This document shows positions 11,215 to 28,847 of a stretch of DNA of 32,000 nucleotides, one piece after another. Within the stretch, counting starts at the first letter, position 1; the number at the start of each line of letters is the position of its first letter. The position numbers and the translations under genes are program-made. Source of the stretch: an uncultured Clostridia bacterium (GTDB taxonomy: Bacteria > Bacillota > Clostridia > TANB77 > CAG-508); NCBI GenBank assembly GCA_934130435.1, contig CAKOYB010000003.1, positions 37,994 through 69,993 on the forward strand, given 5' to 3'. Below the pieces are notes generated by a model, which worked only from the letters and a program-made list of their open reading frames with translations, had not been told where the DNA came from and made no database searches.

Positions 11215-13818
11215 TTATTCTCCGTAATATGCTTTTAAATACATTTCTTTTATTTCACTAATTAATGGATATCTTGGGTTAGCACCTGTACATTGATCGT
11301 CAAATGCTTGTTCAGACATCTCATCAAGTCTATCTAAGAAATTCTTTTCATCTATCCCATAGTCTTTAATAGTTTTCTTTATTCCTATTTTTTCTTTTAA
11401 TTCATCAATAGCTTTTATTAAATTATTCAAACTTTCTTCATCATTTGCTCCACCAAATCCCAAAGCTTCTGCAACTTCTGCATATCTTCTTAATGTATGT
11501 GGATGGTCATATTGTGGGAATGTTCCCATTTTATTTGGTACTTCTTCACTATTAAATCTTAAAACATAGTCTATCATCAATGCATTTGCAACTCCGTGTG
11601 GTATATGGTGAAATGCTCCAAGTTTATGTGCCATTGAGTGGCAAACTCCTAGGAATGCATTTGCAAAAGCCATACCTGCCATAGTTGCTGCATTAGCCAT
11701 TTTTTCTCTTGCTTCTGGATCATTCGCTCCATTTTCATATGCTCTTGGTAAATATTTAAATATATTTTTTAATGCTTCTATTGCTAAACCGTCTGTATAT
11801 TCTGTAGCCATCATTGATGCATATGCTTCTAAACAGTGTGTTACCGCATCTATACCTGATGCTGAAGTTAAGCCTTTTGGTGCATTCATCATCATATTGC
11901 AGTCTACAATAGCCATTTTAGGTAATAATTCATAATCTGCTAATGGATATTTTGTTCCTGTTTTTTCATCTGTTATAACTGCAAATGGTGTAACTTCTGA
12001 ACCTGTACCTGCTGATGTTGGAACTGCTATAAAGTAAGCTTTTTCTCCCATTTTAGGGAATGTGTATACTCTTTTTCTTATATCCATAAATCTCATTGCC
12101 ATATCTAAGAAATCAACTTCTGGATGTTCATACATAACCCACATTATTTTACCTGCATCCATTGCAGAACCACCACCAACTGCAATTATTGCATCTGGTT
12201 TAAAAGCGTTCATTGCTTTTGTTCCTTCTATTGCACATGCAAGTGTTGGATCTGGTTCAACATTTGAAAATGTTGTATGTTCAATTCCTAGTTCATCTAA
12301 TTTATTTGTTATTGGTTTTGTATAACCATTTTCAAATAAAAATGTATCTGTTACTATAAATACTTTCTTTTTATTCATTACATTTTTTAGTTCTTCTAAA
12401 GCCACAGGTAAGCAGCCTCTTTTTATATATACCTTTTCAGGTGCTCTAAACCAAAGCATATTTTCTCTCCTTTCAGCAACTGTTTTTATATTTAACAATT
12501 GTTTTATTCCTACATTTTCTGATACTGAGTTTCCACCCCATGAACCACATCCAAGTGTTAATGATGGTGTAAGCTTAAAATTATATAAATCTCCAATTCC
12601 TCCTTGAGAAGATGGTGTATTTATAAGCACCCTACAAGTTTTCATATTATTATAAAACTCTTCTATCTTTTCTTTTTCTGTAATTGTATTTATATATAAT
12701 GATGAAGTATGTCCTAACCCTCCATCTTCAATTAATCTTCTTGCTTTGCTAATTGCATCTTCAAAATCATTTGCCCTATACATTGCTAAAACTGGTGATA
12801 GTTTTTCGTGTGCAAACTCTTCTGATAATTCAACACTTTCAACTTCTCCTATTAATATTTTAGTGTTTTCTGGCACTTCAACTCCTGCTAAAGTAGCAAT
12901 TGTATGAGCTTTTTGTCCAACTATTTTAGCATTTAATGCTCCATTTATGATTATAGTTTTTCTAACTTTCTCTGTTTCTTCTGGATTTAATAAATAGCAT
13001 CCTCTTTTTATAAATTCTTCTCTTACTTTGTTATATACCTTATCTAGGACTATTACAGATTGTTCAGATGCACATATCATACCATTATCAAAAGTTTTTG
13101 AATGAATTATTGAATTAACTGCTAAAACAATATCTGCTGTTTCATCTATTATTGCTGGTGTGTTTCCTGCGCCAACTCCAAGTGCTGGTTTTCCACTTGA
13201 ATATGCAGCTTTAACCATTCCTGGTCCACCAGTTGCTAATATTGTATCTGCTGATTGCATTAATGTATTTGTAAGTTCAAGAGATGGAACATCAATCCAA
13301 GCAATTATATTCTCTGGTGCTCCTGCTTTTACAGCAGCTTCTAAAACTACTTTTGCAGCCTCTATTGTTGATTTCTTTGCTCTAGGATGTGGGCTTATAA
13401 TAATTCCATTTCTAGTTTTTAAACATATTAAAGTTTTAAAGATTGCTGTTGAAGTTGGATTTGTTGTTGGTATAACAGCTCCAATTATTCCAATTGGTTC
13501 TAAAACTTTTTTTATTCCATATGAATTGTCCTCTTCTACAACACCACATGTTTTTTCATTTCTGTATTTGTTGTAAATATACTCTGCTGCATAATGGTTT
13601 TTTATTACCTTATCCTCTACAATTCCCATCCCTGTTTCTTCTACTGCCATTTTTGCAAGTGGGATTCTTGCACTATTTGCAGCAATTGCTGCTGCTTTGA
13701 ATATTTGGTCAACCTTCTCTTGTGAAAATTTTGAAAACTCTTCTTGAGCTTTCTTAACTTTCTCAATAGCTTGTAGTAGTTTTTCTACACTGTCTATAAC
13801 TTCATACTCTTTGCTCAT
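11215..13818 (-). CDS. adhE: bifunctional acetaldehyde-CoA / alcohol dehydrogenase
   Basis: 867 aa. The N-terminal ALDH domain carries the catalytic Cys in FDNGMICASEQ. The C-terminal Fe-ADH domain has GGGSAMDAGK and histidine motifs CHSMAHKLGAFHHIPHG. GGAGG lies 6 nt upstream, inside the 3' end of the preceding gene. Confidence 0.95.
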   Translation of the reverse strand: MSKEYEVIDSVEKLLQAIEKVKKAQEEFSKFSQEKVDQIFKAAAIAANSARIPLAKMAVEETGMGIVEDKVIKNHYAAEYIYNKYRNEKTCGVVEEDNSYGIKKVLEPIGIIGAVIPTTNPTSTAIFKTLICLKTRNGIIISPHPRAKKSTIEAAKVVLEAAVKAGAPENIIAWIDVPSLELTNTLMQSADTILATGGPGMVKAAYSSGKPALGVGAGNTPAIIDETADIVLAVNSIIHSKTFDNGMICASEQSVIVLDKVYNKVREEFIKRGCYLLNPEETEKVRKTIIINGALNAKIVGQKAHTIATLAGVEVPENTKILIGEVESVELSEEFAHEKLSPVLAMYRANDFEDAISKARRLIEDGGLGHTSSLYINTITEKEKIEEFYNNMKTCRVLINTPSSQGGIGDLYNFKLTPSLTLGCGSWGGNSVSENVGIKQLLNIKTVAERRENMLWFRAPEKVYIKRGCLPVALEELKNVMNKKKVFIVTDTFLFENGYTKPITNKLDELGIEHTTFSNVEPDPTLACAIEGTKAMNAFKPDAIIAVGGGSAMDAGKIMWVMYEHPEVDFLDMAMRFMDIRKRVYTFPKMGEKAYFIAVPTSAGTGSEVTPFAVITDEKTGTKYPLADYELLPKMAIVDCNMMMNAPKGLTSASGIDAVTHCLEAYASMMATEYTDGLAIEALKNIFKYLPRAYENGANDPEAREKMANAATMAGMAFANAFLGVCHSMAHKLGAFHHIPHGVANALMIDYVLRFNSEEVPNKMGTFPQYDHPHTLRRYAEVAEALGFGGANDEESLNNLIKAIDELKEKIGIKKTIKDYGIDEKNFLDRLDEMSEQAFDDQCTGANPRYPLISEIKEMYLKAYYGE

Positions 13819-15259
13819 CTTTATCCTCCTTTTTTTTAGTTAAATTATATAAATTAATTGAATTTTTAATGTCTTGCTCTTTTGCTTTTTTTCCAAATTT
13901 GTCTATTTCTAGTACATTTTTGGGTCCATGGTGTATACATAAAGCCCCATTTAAGCATCCTCCATCACAAGCCATTCCTTCAAAAAAATTATCTAAAGAC
14001 TTACCCATTTTTAATTTTAATAGATTTATTTTACATTCTGAAATTCCATTCATTGCAACTGGTTTTATATTATCTATATTAAAATACTCTTTAGCAACGT
14101 TTTTTATTCCTTGGGTTATTCCTCCTGTTTTTGCAAATATTCTGCCATAAAAAGATGCATTATTTAGAACTGTTTCATTAAGTTTTTCCATTTCAATTTC
14201 TTTTGCATCAAATAATGCTTGTAATTCTTCAAACGATATAACTGAATCAATTGCACCTTTTGTTTTTTCTAATTTATATTCCATTTTCTTACTTGTGCAA
14301 GGTCCAATAAATATAACTTTTCCAGTTGGATCAGAATTTTTTATAAGTTGTGCAGCATATATCATAGGTGATACTGAATTTGATATATATTTTGTAAGTT
14401 CTGGAAAGTTTTTTTCTACGTACATCACAAAAGACGGGCAACATGAAGTAGTTAATATTTGTTTTTCTTTAAACTCCTTTGCTTCATTATACAATGCTAT
14501 ATCTGCACCTATTGCTGCTTCAACAACTTGGTGAAATCCTAATTTCATTATTCCTGTTACAATTTGTTCAGGTGTAACATTATCAAATTGTCCAGCTATA
14601 GATGGAGCTATAACTGCATAAACTTTGTATTTTTTGTTATTATCTGATTTCTTTAATATATCAATTGTTTCTAATATATATGATTTGTCTGATATTGCTC
14701 CAAATGGGCACTGATATACACATGCTCCACAAGATATACATTTATTATTGTCAATTTTTGCTTTTTTATTTTCATCTATTGAAATTGCATTAACTTTACA
14801 AGATTTAACACATGGCCTTTCTTGTTTTATTATAGCTGAATATGGACATACTGTTGTACATTTTCCGCACTCAACACATTTTTCCTTATCTACACTTGCC
14901 TTGTGATTTATTATTGAAATTGCTCCTCTTGGGCAAACTTCTACGCATCTATGTACTAAACATCCTCTACATGCTGGTGTAACATATACTCCTTCAGCTG
15001 GGCACTCATCACATGCTATATCTATAACTTCAACTGAATTTGGATTTTCTTTATTTTCTCCTAAAGCTAATGCTATTCTGTCTTCAATAATAGCTCTATC
15101 CTTATAAACACAGCAACGTGCAATTGGTTTTGGTCCCGGAGAAATTATTTTCGGAATGTCTTTATAACAAGAAACTATATCATCAGCATATGCTTTTTTT
15201 ATTACCTCTTTTAATACTTCATATTTTAATTGTTGTACATAAGTGTCAAATTTATTCAT
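13802..15259 (-). CDS. [FeFe]-hydrogenase-type protein (ferredoxin-like 4Fe-4S domains plus H-cluster domain), probable catalytic partner of HydS
   Basis: 485 aa. It has several CxxCxxCxxxCP motifs. H-cluster motifs are present as TSCCP (TTSCCPSFV), GPCTSKKME and EGMACDGGCLNG. The last 17 nt overlap the adhE start. Confidence 0.85.
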   Translation of the reverse strand: MNKFDTYVQQLKYEVLKEVIKKAYADDIVSCYKDIPKIISPGPKPIARCCVYKDRAIIEDRIALALGENKENPNSVEVIDIACDECPAEGVYVTPACRGCLVHRCVEVCPRGAISIINHKASVDKEKCVECGKCTTVCPYSAIIKQERPCVKSCKVNAISIDENKKAKIDNNKCISCGACVYQCPFGAISDKSYILETIDILKKSDNNKKYKVYAVIAPSIAGQFDNVTPEQIVTGIMKLGFHQVVEAAIGADIALYNEAKEFKEKQILTTSCCPSFVMYVEKNFPELTKYISNSVSPMIYAAQLIKNSDPTGKVIFIGPCTSKKMEYKLEKTKGAIDSVISFEELQALFDAKEIEMEKLNETVLNNASFYGRIFAKTGGITQGIKNVAKEYFNIDNIKPVAMNGISECKINLLKLKMGKSLDNFFEGMACDGGCLNGALCIHHGPKNVLEIDKFGKKAKEQDIKNSINLYNLTKKKEDKDEQRV

Positions 15260-15275
15260 TATTTAACCTTCCTTT

Positions 15276-16438
15276 TTAGTAATATTTAATACTAACTCTT
15301 TTTCCCATTAGTTCTAAGTTTTTTGAAAGTCTTTCTACTAATTTAAATTTTAACGTACTATCTATTGGTAATCCGCTATGTGCTTCGTTTACTGCTTGAC
15401 CCACAAAAAAGTTAACATCAGTTGCTTGTTCAAATAAAAAGTTTGCAAGTTGTGAAGCTCCATCCTTTTTCAAGAAATTCTTTGGTATATTACTATCTAT
15501 TTTTAAATACTCTTCTGAAAGTTCTATTAGTTTTCTTAAAGTTAATACCCCTTCTGTAGTTAAGTCTATACCTTTTATATACCCAATAGGTGGGATTTGG
15601 CTATCTATATAGTTCATATCGGTTTCTACTTTTTCATTTAAATAATTGGCTACAATTTGTGATGTTGTTCCCCCACATACAATCCTTATTCCGTCATTTC
15701 TTAGGAAATCTTCTACATATTTGTCACATTCTTCTCTTTTTACAGGCGGCCCAATCATAATATTCACTTTGCTTTCTTTTCTAATTTTTATTGCTGCTAC
15801 TGTTGTATCATCACCAGGCTCTCCCATATATAAAGCTTGACTAGAAGTTGCAAGTATATTTGCAACACATCTTGCTGACATTTGCGGTTTTATATTTTCC
15901 CTTAGGTAATCTATAATATCTTCTCTTTGCCACCCTAAATTTAATGTCTTTCCAATTCCGTGCATGTGGAACACCATCAGACATTAAAAGTATTATATCT
16001 TGATCATCTAATCTTAAATTTGTCTTATATATTTTTTTATTTAAAATGTTTAACTCTTTTCTTTCTAGTTCTTTTGGTTCTCCATTTGTAAAGAATATAC
16101 ACTTAGGATTATCAAATTCAAACATATATCCTTCTCCATCATTATTTATATGAATTACAGAGAATGTTGAATATGCCACTCCTCTTTCCCTACAGACAGG
16201 CAATGTTTGTACAATTGTTTCTATGCATTCTTCCATTGGAATATCATTTGATACCATAGTACTTAAAATTTTAGAAGTTAGAGTTGCTAAAATATTTGCT
16301 TTAACCCCGGCTTCCCATTCCATCTGCAAGCACTAATGTGGTATATCCATCCTTTTTTACAATAGAAACTTTATCTCCACAAAGCTCTTCTCCATATTTA
16401 TTAAATGATGTATAGCCATATTCAAGGAAAAGTCCCAT
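15276..16438 (-). pseudogene. PP2C/SpoIIE-type serine phosphatase, disrupted by two +1 frameshifts
   Basis: It is split over three frames. (1) 16438-16301 reads MGLFLEYGYTSFNKYGEELCGDKV...LADGMGSRG*. (2) 16329-15841 reads ...GVKANILATLTSKI...LLMSDGVPHA.... (3) 15977-15276 reads ...GIGKTLNLGWQREDII...KYY*. Removing one base near 16309 and one near 15960 restores a continuous DGMGSGVKAN...SDGVPHAGIGKTLNLGW protein. Its start overlaps the hydS stop (TAATG). Confidence 0.8.
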
Positions 16439-18138
16439 TATTTTTCTCCTTCATTATCTTCTTTTAATGTTTTTCTTAAATTAACTAATGCAACTTTAGC
16501 CTCTGCCGTTGTTTCTCCTAGAAGTGATGCAATTTCTTGCGCTACCCTCATTTGTTTTTTTATCACTTCGTCGGTTGTTGCAATAGTTTCTAGTTTCACT
16601 TCTTTTATTTTTTCATTATAATTAACTTTATCTGTAATGTCCTTCATAATTGCAAAAATCATATTATGTTCCTTCATATAATTAACTGATAATTCAATAT
16701 ATAAGTTTGTTTTTGAAATTTTAATTTGTTTTGAAAATACGTTTCTTTTTTCTGTAAGTGCTTCAATAAACTCAATATTTTCATCCATACAGTCAAGTAT
16801 TGAAGTTTCCTTTGGCTTAAATCTTTTAATTCCAATTAGATTCTTAGCTTTATTATTCATGTCTATTATGTTAAAATCTTTATCTATAACAATAATTCCA
16901 TTTGGACTATTTTTTATTATTTCATTAGACATATTCTCTGCTCTTTCTCGCATATATGGCAAACACATTTCTATATCTGCATATCCATTAATAACTGCCC
17001 ATGCTTTTTCTCTGCATGTTGAATATCCACATGCCCCACAGTTAAGTTCATCTTCTTTTGTATACTTTCCTGTTTTTGCTAATACTTCTTTTATTTGCTC
17101 TTCTGTAGGTTCTATATCATTAATGTTTTGTTTTTTATGATCATGTATAATGTTTATGCTTTTTTCTTCACTTAACTCTGTTTTTTTATCTATGCAAGAA
17201 TTATTTTTAACATAATTACGTATTTTAGAATTTGCAATTATTGCCGTATTATCTTTATTTAAACTACATGGACCATTAATGCAAGACCCTTGGCATGTAT
17301 TTAACTCAAGAAATACATTCTCTAGATTTTCTATACCTTTCAATGCTTCTTTACATCTTTCTACTCCATCTATAGCTATATATTCATATCCATCTATTAA
17401 TTTATCAAATGACTTGATTATTCCTCTGCTTATTGGAAAGAATCTTTCCTTGTTCCAGCTTACTTCTTCATTACTAGTTTTTTCTTCTATATTAATATTT
17501 TCTTCTTTAAATAGTTCAAGTAAATCTTCAAAAGTTAATACCCCATCTATTAATCCTGATTCTTTACATTCTTTTTTCTTTGCTATGCATGGTCCAATGA
17601 ACACAATTTTGCAATCTGGATTTTCTTCTTTTAAAATCTTTGCATGTGCAATTGCCGGAGAGTCAACTGGTGCCAAATATTTTAATGCATTTGGATAATA
17701 TATACTAATCATATTATTTACAGCTGGACAACAAGAAGTTATAAAGTTTTTATATTTTTTGCCTTTAAGCAGTTTTTCATATTCTTTAATAACTTTCTGT
17801 GCACCTCTTGCTGTTTCTTCGCCAAAAATAAAACCTATTTTTTTTAATGCTTCATTTATACTTGAAAAGTTTTTAATGTTAAAACTAGATACGAAAGATG
17901 GAGCAATACTTGCTATTACTTTGTTTTCTTTTAGTAAATTTTTAACTTCTTCTAATTCGCTATGAACTCTCTTGGCGTTCTGAGGACAAATTAATGTACA
18001 TTTTCCGCACAATATGCAGCGTTCTTCAATTATTTTTGCTTGATTTTTTTCTATTTTTATAGCCTTAACTGGACAATTTTTTAGACATTTATAACAATTT
18101 TTACATTTTGCTTCCTTAAACTCTAAATACTTTAACAT
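16438..18138 (-). CDS. hydS: sensory (group C) [FeFe]-hydrogenase with C-terminal Cys motif and PAS domain, copy 1
   Basis: 566 aa. Two N-terminal ferredoxin motifs (CKNCYKCLKNCP, CILCGKCTLICP). The H-domain motifs are TSCCP, GPCIAKKKE and NTCQGSCINGP. These are followed by CGACGYSTC-x16-C (Cx2Cx4Cx16C) and a PAS-like segment (NSPNGIIVIDKDFNIIDMNNKAKNLIG). This architecture matches that described for HydS of Thermotoga maritima. Confidence 0.85.
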   Translation of the reverse strand: MLKYLEFKEAKCKNCYKCLKNCPVKAIKIEKNQAKIIEERCILCGKCTLICPQNAKRVHSELEEVKNLLKENKVIASIAPSFVSSFNIKNFSSINEALKKIGFIFGEETARGAQKVIKEYEKLLKGKKYKNFITSCCPAVNNMISIYYPNALKYLAPVDSPAIAHAKILKEENPDCKIVFIGPCIAKKKECKESGLIDGVLTFEDLLELFKEENINIEEKTSNEEVSWNKERFFPISRGIIKSFDKLIDGYEYIAIDGVERCKEALKGIENLENVFLELNTCQGSCINGPCSLNKDNTAIIANSKIRNYVKNNSCIDKKTELSEEKSINIIHDHKKQNINDIEPTEEQIKEVLAKTGKYTKEDELNCGACGYSTCREKAWAVINGYADIEMCLPYMRERAENMSNEIIKNSPNGIIVIDKDFNIIDMNNKAKNLIGIKRFKPKETSILDCMDENIEFIEALTEKRNVFSKQIKISKTNLYIELSVNYMKEHNMIFAIMKDITDKVNYNEKIKEVKLETIATTDEVIKKQMRVAQEIASLLGETTAEAKVALVNLRKTLKEDNEGEK

Positions 18139-18149
18139 AAGAACCTCTT

Positions 18150-18392
18150 TTAAATTTTATTTATTACTTGTTTTTCAAAAATTTCTTCTATGGTTTCTGG
18201 ACTAACATTTGATATAAGTTTTCCATCTATTTCCATTGATACACCATTTGAGCAATTTCCTAGACAAAAACTTGCTTTAAGTTCTACCTTATCTCCTACA
18301 TTTTTTTCTTCAATTAGTTTTTTTAATTTTTGTACTACATCATATGATCCTTTTAAATGGCATGAACTTCCAACACATACCTTAATCTCCAT
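18150..18392 (-). CDS. thioredoxin-like [2Fe-2S] ferredoxin (NuoE/HndA-like), copy 1
   Basis: 80 aa with the Cys pattern CVGSSC...CLGNC. Confidence 0.8.
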   Translation of the reverse strand: MEIKVCVGSSCHLKGSYDVVQKLKKLIEEKNVGDKVELKASFCLGNCSNGVSMEIDGKLISNVSPETIEEIFEKQVINKI

Positions 18393-18472
18393 TTTTACAC
18401 TTCCTTTTCTTTTAAATTCTTTAATAATATTGATAATGAAGCTGATAAATCTTCATTTTTAATTGCTATATT

Positions 18473-19015
18473 TTATGGCACCTTAAGTTCTATAGGTGCA
18501 AAATTCCAAATTGCTTTTATTCCACATTCAACCATTTTATTGCAAACTTCTTGTGCTGCATTTTGTGGAACAGTAATTATTCCTATATGAATATTCATTC
18601 TCTTAATTAAATCTTCCATCTTGCTTATATAAAATATTTTTCTATTATCACATATTTTTTCATTAGTATCAAAAGCAATTAAAATATTTATATCATTTTC
18701 AAATCCATTGTAATTCATTAATGCTTGCCCTAGTTTTCCTGCACCTACTATCACTGCGTCTGTAGCATTGTTAAGATTTAAAAATTCCTCAATATCTTTA
18801 ATTAAATCATCTATTTTAAAACCAATACCTGGTTTTCCTTCATTTTTACTTACTAGTGCTAAGTCTTTTCTTACCTGAATTGAATTTAAGTTAAGAAAAT
18901 TAGACATTGTTGTAGAAGAAATAAATTTTATATTTTCTTCCTTCTTTTCTTTTAATATTCTAAGATATTTTGGTAATCGCTTAAGAGTTGCTTGTGATAT
19001 ATATACTTCTTTCAT
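18473..19015 (-). CDS. rex: redox-sensing repressor Rex, ended prematurely by an in-frame TAA, copy 1
   Basis: 180 aa. The N-terminal winged-helix block reads ATLKRLPKYLRIL...ISSTTMSNFLNLNSIQVRKDL. The Rossmann motif is VGAGKLGQAL. The ORF ends at ...NFAPIELKVP*. The next 25 in-frame codons (18398-18472) read NIAIKNEDLSASLSILLKNLKEKEV, which resembles the normal Rex C-terminus. Confidence 0.85.
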   Translation of the reverse strand: MKEVYISQATLKRLPKYLRILKEKKEENIKFISSTTMSNFLNLNSIQVRKDLALVSKNEGKPGIGFKIDDLIKDIEEFLNLNNATDAVIVGAGKLGQALMNYNGFENDINILIAFDTNEKICDNRKIFYISKMEDLIKRMNIHIGIITVPQNAAQEVCNKMVECGIKAIWNFAPIELKVP

Positions 19016-19046
19016 AATTGCTCCTCGATATTATTTTATCGATTTT

Positions 19047-28202: not shown

Positions 28203-28847
28203 TTATATCGTACTAACCACTTTTTTTACTCTTTTAATAAACTCTTCTTTATTTGATAATGCTTGTCTCAATTTTTTGATTGCTTCATCAAATTCTCTAT
28301 CTTCCAGATATATCTTTGCATACCCATTTTCACCGTATTTTTCTGTTAAATGTTCATATACTCTTTCTACTTGTTCTTCTTCAGGTAATTCTGCATAATT
28401 TTTCTTTCCATAAGAATATGTTCTTTTTATTGTATTATCTATGTCTATAATTGTTCTATCTGCAGTACTAATAATCATTCCATATATACTTCTAGGTTTA
28501 TGATTGCTTGAGGCTCTGTGATCTTCTATTGCTTCTTTTATTATGTTTGTTTTTTCATCTGTAAACCATTGTTTAACTTTCTCATCTTTCATAAAAATTT
28601 CTGCAGATATCAATTCATGTGTTTTCCTATCTATATAATGTCCTAAATCATGATATGCTGCTATTGTATAAACCATATCTAAATTAACATCATATTTTTT
28701 TGCTAGTTCTAAACTTCTTTTTATTACTGTTTTTATATGTCCTATTCCATGTCCTTCCTCATTTCTGTCATATAATGGAAATATTTCGTCTTCTATGTAT
28801 CTTACTAATTCTTTATTTATATTATTGCTTTCTATAGTTATATTCAT
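28203..28847 (-). CDS. HD-domain phosphohydrolase
   Basis: 214 aa with H...HD signatures (HGIGHIKTV, AAYHDLGHYIDR). Confidence 0.75.
   Translation of the reverse strand: MNITIESNNINKELVRYIEDEIFPLYDRNEEGHGIGHIKTVIKRSLELAKKYDVNLDMVYTIAAYHDLGHYIDRKTHELISAEIFMKDEKVKQWFTDEKTNIIKEAIEDHRASSNHKPRSIYGMIISTADRTIIDIDNTIKRTYSYGKKNYAELPEEEQVERVYEHLTEKYGENGYAKIYLEDREFDEAIKKLRQALSNKEEFIKRVKKVVSTI

Follow-up and report, generated by a model that had tools for sequence, protein, structure and literature searches.

Why does the rex gene of an uncultured Clostridia bacterium end after 180 codons when the same frame stays open for 25 more, and what becomes of the repressor if those residues are lost? The gene lies in a 32,000-nucleotide stretch of contig CAKOYB010000003.1 (GenBank assembly GCA_934130435.1, positions 37,994 to 69,993), referred to below as the window, which has a G+C content of 27.6%, contains sporulation-type genes and carries rex twice. 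The C-terminal β-strand and the domain-swapped helix of Rex are encoded, yet in both copies a TAA at codon 181 cuts them from the open reading frame (ORF). From a comparison of alleles we put the probability at roughly 80% that this TAA is a very recent nonsense mutation, Lys181 AAA to TAA, private to one strain.

The rex reading frame and its C-terminal tail

Copy 1 of rex starts with an ATG at 19015 and runs for 180 codons to a C-terminus of ...AIWNFAPIELKVP, with the residues NFAPIELKVP standing directly before the TAA at 18475–18473 (features are listed in Table 1). Translation of 19015–18395 stays open beyond this stop for 25 codons (NIAIKNEDLSASLSILLKNLKEKEV) up to a second TAA, the original rex stop, which 2 bases (AA) separate from the ferredoxin ATG at 18392. 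Retranslation reproduced every coordinate given in the initial annotation for the stops of both rex copies, the second TAA and the ferredoxin start. Taken alone, 25 open codons are not significant (P ∼ 0.08 from base composition; at least 25 sense codons beyond the stop are also found in 4 of 22 other window genes), and the case for the tail therefore rests on homology.

The winged-helix DNA-binding family PF06971 matches Rex residues 6–52 (E = 1.8e-17) and the Rossmann NAD(H) family PF02629 matches residues 83–174, with GAGKLG (residues 91–96) as the GxGxxG motif. When any sense residue is placed at codon 181, a repaired Rex of 206 residues results. This protein scored 247.3 bits against the NCBIfam Rex equivalog NF003994 (cut-off 130), its residues 4–205 aligning with profile positions 7–212 of 217. 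A phmmer search of PDB sequences aligned the repaired Rex through the tail to RSP (3WG9, E = 3.6e-38), and the alignments with B. subtilis Rex (2VT2) and T. aquaticus Rex (3IKT/1XCB) span the tail too. The initial annotation had matched the tail to a Rex C-terminal pattern. Alignment to curated Rex sequences bears this out, as both the NF003994 and the PDB alignments run through the tail and identify it as homologous to the end of Rex; the B. subtilis segment that it had given, NVPEHIRIHHIDLAVELQSL, is the one that aligns to the tail in 2VT2.

In an alignment of 37 homologues (66–97% identical), G91, G93, G96 and D116 are invariant, and so are E188, D189, L190, S193, L194 and L197 of the tail, while K186, N187 and S191 are nearly so. 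Position 181 itself is variable across relatives (K, Q, E, L, H or D). An AlphaFold2 model of the intact allele (mean predicted local distance difference test score, pLDDT, 83.6) places a strand at residues 184–187 and a helix at 190–204, both past the stop, and the best 39 PDB matches in a fold search with this model were all Rex structures. These data indicate that the tail is genuine Rex sequence. The gene is Rex by descent and its predicted product is an incomplete Rex. Solved Rex structures (RSP 3WG9, B. subtilis 2VT2, T. aquaticus 1XCB/3IKT, S. agalactiae 3KEO) have the same order of domains, namely winged helix, Rossmann domain with GxGxxG, β-strand and C-terminal helix, and the repaired Rex aligns with them end to end at 30–36% identity. 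Unlike them, the predicted window product ends at residue 180, without the strand and the swapped helix.

The stop codon in other strains

A protein search returned eight clusters of 206 residues that are 97–100% identical to the repaired Rex, with Lys181 in seven and Gln in one (P0006); there was one 180-residue cluster among the 120 best matches. One scan of genome contigs with the intact Rex gave only Ruminococcus flavefaciens loci, at 40% identity. For the nucleotide comparison we used 17 conspecific contigs, each from a different metagenome sample and many from pig gut. Codons 179–182 read GTA CCA AAA AAT in 17 of 17, against GTG CCA TAA AAT in the window. A T at 18475 was seen in the window and in one further contig of the same strain (L010, see below), and all 17 others have A. 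Within rex, the only changes private to the window are this AAA to TAA change and the synonymous GTA to GTG change at 18479, which converts AAGGTA to the Shine-Dalgarno-like AAGGTG. Every remaining window variant over the whole 3-kb repeat that contains rex occurs in some other strain, and the 78 nucleotides past the stop, with the 25 tail residues, are 100% identical in all contigs aligned there.

Since 17 of 17 conspecific contigs read AAA, the ancestral codon was Lys. The initial annotation had the stop replacing a Glu codon (GAA), which does not hold for this species. It had also raised the question of relatives whose Rex ends naturally at ...KVP with unrelated sequence downstream; the other conspecific proteins have 206 residues and a conserved tail. 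Because the other strains have the 206-residue form and the tail is 100% identical, we regard the lesion as recent and private and not as a natural short form; it appears to be younger than the ∼ 1% divergence among the strains. Recent lesion, sequencing error and tolerance by readthrough had been left side by side by the initial annotation. The data favour the first and speak against the second, given that a second assembly has the TAA; nothing was found that supports the third.

Two other explanations for the stop were rejected. Reassignment of the stop codon is ruled out because TAA ends 14 of 22 other window ORFs, and frameshifting at the rex stop is ruled out by the position of the tail in the zero frame.

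Predicted effect on Rex

The 180-residue product retains the winged-helix and Rossmann domains and lacks strand 184–187 and helix 190–204. In all solved Rex proteins, swapped C-terminal helices stabilize the dimer, each lying between the DNA-binding and Rossmann domains of the partner; the N-terminus of the helix forms part of the nicotinamide pocket and carries the signal of bound NADH to the DNA-binding domains (PMC8063818, PMC8376106). In T. aquaticus Rex the main chain of Phe189 contacts the carboxamide of NADH (PMC8063818). This residue corresponds to Leu190 in the phmmer alignment. The published structures match the view, put forward in the initial annotation, of a domain-swapped helix that couples NADH binding to DNA binding, and its central proposal of a probably impaired 180-residue Rex is supported by reference to these homologues. 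Because the lost helix stabilizes the dimer, packs on the partner's DNA-binding domain and contacts the nicotinamide, the truncated Rex has most likely lost all or nearly all of its function (null or severe hypomorph). In that case the genes under Rex control, among them probably the operon headed by rex itself, would be derepressed whatever the NADH/NAD+ ratio.

What the window shows is a well-known regulator with a nonsense allele private to one strain, most likely a natural knockout or hypomorph. As a single base change (TAA to AAA) restores the protein, the allele offers a ready test of what the domain-swapped helix contributes. If it is null, the strain amounts to a gut fermenter with a natural rex knockout, and comparison with the near-isogenic Lys181 strains (∼ 99% identical, in many pig-gut samples) would reveal what Rex controls here and whether its loss moves electrons from H2/acetate to ethanol in the gut, the shift that engineered deletions bring about in biofuel strains.

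The rex–hfs–adhE gene string

In the window rex heads a string of genes, hfsA-hfsB-hfsC-[FeFe] hydrogenase-adhE (Table 1). Polarity of the new stop on the ferredoxin gene should be small because that gene keeps its own ribosome-binding site, AAGGAAGTG. The [FeFe] hydrogenase gene and adhE share 17 nucleotides (13802–13818, minus strand), adhE starting at 13818 before the hydrogenase frame ends, and hfsB and hfsC, like the 75-residue ORF and the zeta-toxin gene described below, overlap or abut. Such an arrangement suggests that translation is coupled from one end of the rex-hfs-adhE string to the other.

The promoter-like element upstream of rex is followed by a palindrome, TCGATA-N6-TATCGA, that abuts the rex ribosome-binding site (19020–19075 region). 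Promoter and perfect palindrome (TCGATA-N6/7-TATCGA) are kept in three species (also L021:7935-7995 and L020:7935-7995). The palindrome does not have the form of a Rex operator and may be a hairpin in the 5′ untranslated region or a site for a different regulator.

A sister species (Rex 76% identical) has the order rex-hfsA-hfsB-(IS110)-hfsC-adhE, and in a further species (Rex 69% identical; L020:8001-11279) adhE directly follows rex and there are no hfs genes. The linkage of rex and adhE is therefore conserved in three species. On this gene order the hfs module is evolutionarily labile and the rex–adhE linkage appears persistent. In the sister species an IS110-family transposase lies between hfsB and a 5′-truncated hfsC, and hfsD is absent (L021:10713-13327).

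In T. saccharolyticum, whose hfsABCD has a predicted Rex site, deletion of rex increases adhE expression and ethanol yield (PMC5886521), and adhE expression likewise goes up when hfsA or hfsB is deleted (PMC5707799). The rex and adhE genes of C. thermocellum belong to a single operon (PMC3804516). By analogy with the published deletions, and given the conserved synteny, derepression of adhE and the hydrogenase in the window strain is plausible. As in T. saccharolyticum and C. thermocellum (PMC5886521, PMC3804516), the Rex gene is linked to adhE, and the expected phenotype is alike, more adhE expression and a shift towards ethanol. Unlike the engineered Δrex mutants, however, the window strain is a wild gut bacterium whose lesion is a spontaneous nonsense change, and a search for canonical TTGTTA-N6-TAACAA operators at the window operon found none.

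The genes after rex also share the order of domain types of Thermoanaerobacterium hfsABCD (PMC5707799), a small [2Fe-2S] protein, a [FeFe]-hydrogenase-like protein with PAS domain, a PP2C/SpoIIE phosphatase and a [FeFe] hydrogenase. This likeness is at the level of domains and not a direct comparison with the T. saccharolyticum protein sequences. Unlike the Thermoanaerobacterium genes, those of the window are joined with rex and adhE in one gene string, and the window hfsC needs two +1 frameshifts.

Nonsense changes were also found elsewhere in the population. One strain carries a private TAA in hfsB (Ser469 TCA to TAA; L006:1423-3123), and another a private TAA stop at Glu83 of an HD-domain gene (L001:960-1604) that is intact in the window (28203–28847). 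A split hfsB in contig L015 was considered as a third regulatory knockout and rejected, being a scaffold gap of Ns. Such lesions are ordinary in this AT-rich population, and the rex change resembles those in hfsB and the HD-domain gene in being a private stop of the kind expected of strain-level variation. Unlike them, it strikes a global regulator and lies in a duplicated segment. That two of the nonsense cases fall in rex and hfsB, both negative regulators of adhE, is suggestive, but two are too few to argue for selection; they hint at repeated loss of such regulators, and we take this as a lead only (n = 2).

The duplication

Both rex genes lie in a 3032-bp direct repeat, R, whose copies match exactly over one run of 2940 bp and differ at just 2 positions, which lie at the far upstream end. 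In copy 1 the hfsC portion comprises ∼ 68 codons from the start of the gene (to ...SNDIP in the corrected frame), and the duplication doubles the dose of hfsA and hfsB. In the unique segment U between the copies, the FtsX-type permease part amounts to the C-terminal 330 codons. There is only one novel junction, which links hfsC to the middle of FtsX and has a chimeric hfsC'::ftsX' ORF (21355–22440) as a by-product.

Two haplotypes occur upstream of rex in the species: type A with the order NifS-NifU-rex (L007–L009, L019) and type B with ABC-FtsX-75aa-zeta toxin-PHP-rex (L001–L006, L013–L018, L024). The window combines them as NifU-R-[FtsX C-terminal part-75aa-zeta-PHP]-R-hfsC. Of its parts, U is type B, whereas the two R copies belong to type A and are most similar to L019 (99.4%). 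We infer that the TAA arose on the resident NifU-rex haplotype and that a piece of the foreign haplotype (FtsX'-zeta-PHP) was captured at the 10-bp microhomology, duplicating R; the TAA would then predate the duplication or have been spread to both copies by gene conversion. The single junction points to one illegitimate recombination event, possibly a homology-facilitated capture of type B DNA.

The zeta-toxin-family protein (318 residues) sits in a block at 19228–21297 (minus strand), with an overlapping 75-residue ORF before it and a PHP-domain gene after it. The small ORF is a possible epsilon-like antitoxin and has no family match. Together with the upstream ABC/FtsX pair, the block is present in type B and not in type A strains, and behaves as a variable island beside rex.

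Table 1. Features of the rex region in the window
Feature	Position	Strand	Remarks
rex copy 1, truncated 180-residue ORF	18473..19015	minus	winged-helix and Rossmann NAD(H) domains
Premature stop TAA, codon 181	18473..18475	minus	AAA (Lys) to TAA through A to T at 18475; strain-private
Val179 codon GTG	18479..18481	minus	synonymous GTA to GTG at 18479; strain-private; 4 nt upstream of the nonsense change
Orphaned rex 3′ end, NIAIKNEDLSASLSILLKNLKEKEV and original TAA (18397–18395)	18395..18472	minus	last β-strand and domain-swapped C-terminal helix
rex copy 2, identical truncated ORF	24584..25126	minus	TAA at 24586–24584; orphaned tail and original stop at 24506–24583
rex promoter-like TTGAAA-17-TAATAT with TG extension	19047..19075	minus	conserved in two related species
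hfsA-like thioredoxin-like [2Fe-2S] ferredoxin, 80 residues	18150..18392	minus	PF01257; ribosome-binding site AAGGAAGTG inside the orphaned rex tail
hfsB/HydS-like sensory hydrogenase	16438–18138	minus	PF02906, PF04060 and PAS
hfsC PP2C gene	15276–16438	minus	SpoIIE
Group-B [FeFe] hydrogenase	13802–15259	minus	TIGR04105 monomeric [FeFe] hydrogenase
adhE	11215–13818	minus	end of operon; post-ferredoxin part of operon spans 11215..18138
Repeat R, copy 1	16236..19267	minus	rex promoter region, rex, hfsA-like ferredoxin, hfsB/HydS-like gene, hfsC start
Repeat R, copy 2	22347..25378	minus	differs from copy 1 only at the equivalents of 19176 and 19238
Unique segment U, 3079 bp	19268..22346	minus	FtsX part fused to hfsC stub, 75-residue ORF, zeta-toxin-family protein, PHP-domain protein
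Novel junction, 10-bp microhomology GATATTCCAA	22347..22356	minus	common to hfsC (16236–16245) and the intact FtsX gene of other strains

A second assembly and alternative explanations

A second assembly of the same strain, made with MEGAHIT (ENA ERZ27287399), was reached via AdhE and the zeta-toxin protein; an exact-sequence look-up of the 180-residue Rex and of the hfsC'::ftsX' fusion ORF had matched no record. Three of its contigs cover the locus. L023 (15,162 bp) and L025 (3,453 bp) are 100% identical to window positions 16376–1215 and 22487–19035 respectively, and L025 contains the novel junction. L010 (2,940 bp), which carries GTG CCA TAA, is exactly the identical core of the repeat and overlaps L023 by k = 141. 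Together the contigs reproduce the R-U-R-S repeat graph. As these contigs match the window, two assemblers agree on both the mutation and the repeat graph, and assembly error is unlikely because a separate MEGAHIT assembly has the TAA and the same repeat structure.

Several points weigh against our interpretation. The evidence for the TAA is assembled sequence. ERZ27287399 represents the same strain (0 differences in 15 kb), possibly the same reads, and is not an independent isolate. The short-read assembly collapses the repeat into one contig, and this contig differs from R of the window at 3 sites, each matching alleles of other strains; the two rex copies may differ, and one could in principle be intact. 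A second rex gene may be present elsewhere in the genome. The loss of Rex function is argued from homologue structures: literature searches gave general structural descriptions and no C-terminal truncation experiment on Rex, and no natural or engineered Rex without the C-terminal helix was found in them. Finally, the operator forms TTGTGAA-N4-TTCACAA and TTGTTA-N6-TAACAA, from which the consensus of this clade may differ, gave 18 matches at ≤ 3 mismatches against 14.9 expected, hence no enrichment. No intergenic canonical operator (≤ 2 mismatches) precedes rex, the hfs genes or adhE, so direct Rex control of the operon is putative.

Of the alternatives, the most probable is that the TAA is present in one copy while the other is intact, both assemblies having written one consensus into the two. 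Collapse of R to a single contig in the short-read graph would allow this, and the 3 differing sites of L010 hint at differing copies or co-resident strains. Nevertheless, both assemblies chose the T, always with the linked G at 18479, and the gapless resolution of the repeat in the window contig suggests long reads or some other independent resolution. We consider this explanation unlikely. The claim in the initial annotation that both copies carry the stop thus depends on the window assembly, the short-read assembly having merged the two copies into one.

A stop that is bypassed or compensated, by low-level UAA readthrough (perhaps helped by the doubled dose) or by separate translation of the tail from a weak start, is less probable again, and we give it little weight. 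Its attractions are a perfectly intact tail, a duplicated gene, the private GTA to GTG change that creates AGGTG 9 nucleotides from an ATA codon (Ile182), and recoding that is apparently tolerated in hfsC of the same operon. However, a very recent mutation leaves the tail intact anyway, and even between strains the tail does not differ. TAA is moreover the commonest stop in the window, and a duplication with foreign DNA at its junction resembles a recombination accident and not a selected amplification. In bacteria, ATA and ATT initiate translation very poorly. No tRNA genes were found in the window, and an Rfam scan of it at gathering thresholds gave no match; since both searches came back empty, no recoding element or suppressor tRNA is visible there.

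In a variant of this idea, to which we attach slightly less credence still, the truncated Rex is a split or dosage-rescued repressor, a redox switch that has been re-tuned rather than broken. It is conceivable that AGGTG serves as a ribosome-binding site before the ATA and that a separate 24-residue strand-helix peptide docks in trans, which can be imagined since native Rex already swaps this helix between its subunits. It is also conceivable that rare UAA readthrough and the doubled gene copy maintain a low level of full-length Rex.

That the real genome reads AAA at one or both sites, and that the TAA is an error of sequencing, polishing or assembly, is about as improbable. The evidence is assembled sequence, the window copies are suspiciously identical over 2940 bp, and the 3 differing sites of the collapsed L010 imply that at least one assembly smoothed some heterogeneity. 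Yet both linked private changes, GTG and TAA, appear in two different assemblies; the lesion is a substitution rather than a homopolymer indel; the window has no Ns; its other checked genes are as intact as in relatives; and the MEGAHIT contigs L023 and L025 match it without a difference.

A naturally short, functional Rex of this lineage, as which the protein might pass since it is deposited as an ordinary 180-residue entry in NCBI and ENA, is hardly tenable and is refuted by the length of all other conspecific alleles (206 residues; 200–209 among the more distant relatives listed) and by post-stop DNA that is not unrelated sequence but the conserved Rex C-terminus at full nucleotide identity. 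The nonsense mutation of Lys181 is accordingly the explanation we prefer, and the database entry should carry a truncated-allele flag.

Frame breaks in hfsC

The PP2C gene hfsC is split into ORFs of 45, 162 and 233 residues by two single-C insertions. Each insertion yields a zero-frame CGG (16309–16307 and 15960–15958) directly 5′ of a Gly codon, in the contexts AGC-C-GGG and GCA-C-GGA; the site in the copy 2 stub is at 22420–22418. CGG is otherwise unused: none of the 7,392 codons counted in 21 window ORFs is CGG. Removal of one C per site gives a 386-residue ORF that matches hundreds of uninterrupted 386-residue homologues end to end (best homologue 89% identical, none at 90%).

Both CGG sites are identical in 10 of 10 conspecific contigs that span the gene. 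In the corrected frame the within-species ratio of non-synonymous to synonymous polymorphism (pN/pS) is 0.19, similar to that of neighbouring genes, with 15 synonymous and 11 non-synonymous segregating sites (P = 4e-5 against neutrality), which indicates that hfsC is under purifying selection in this frame. This pattern is better accounted for by a pair of programmed +1 frameshifts, each at a codon that is unused or hungry, than by a dead gene, and hfsC is a recoding candidate that merits separate attention. The closest parallel that we found comes from glass-sponge mitochondria, where rare CGG/UGG codons 5′ of GGA are sites of +1 frameshifting (PMC5009743).

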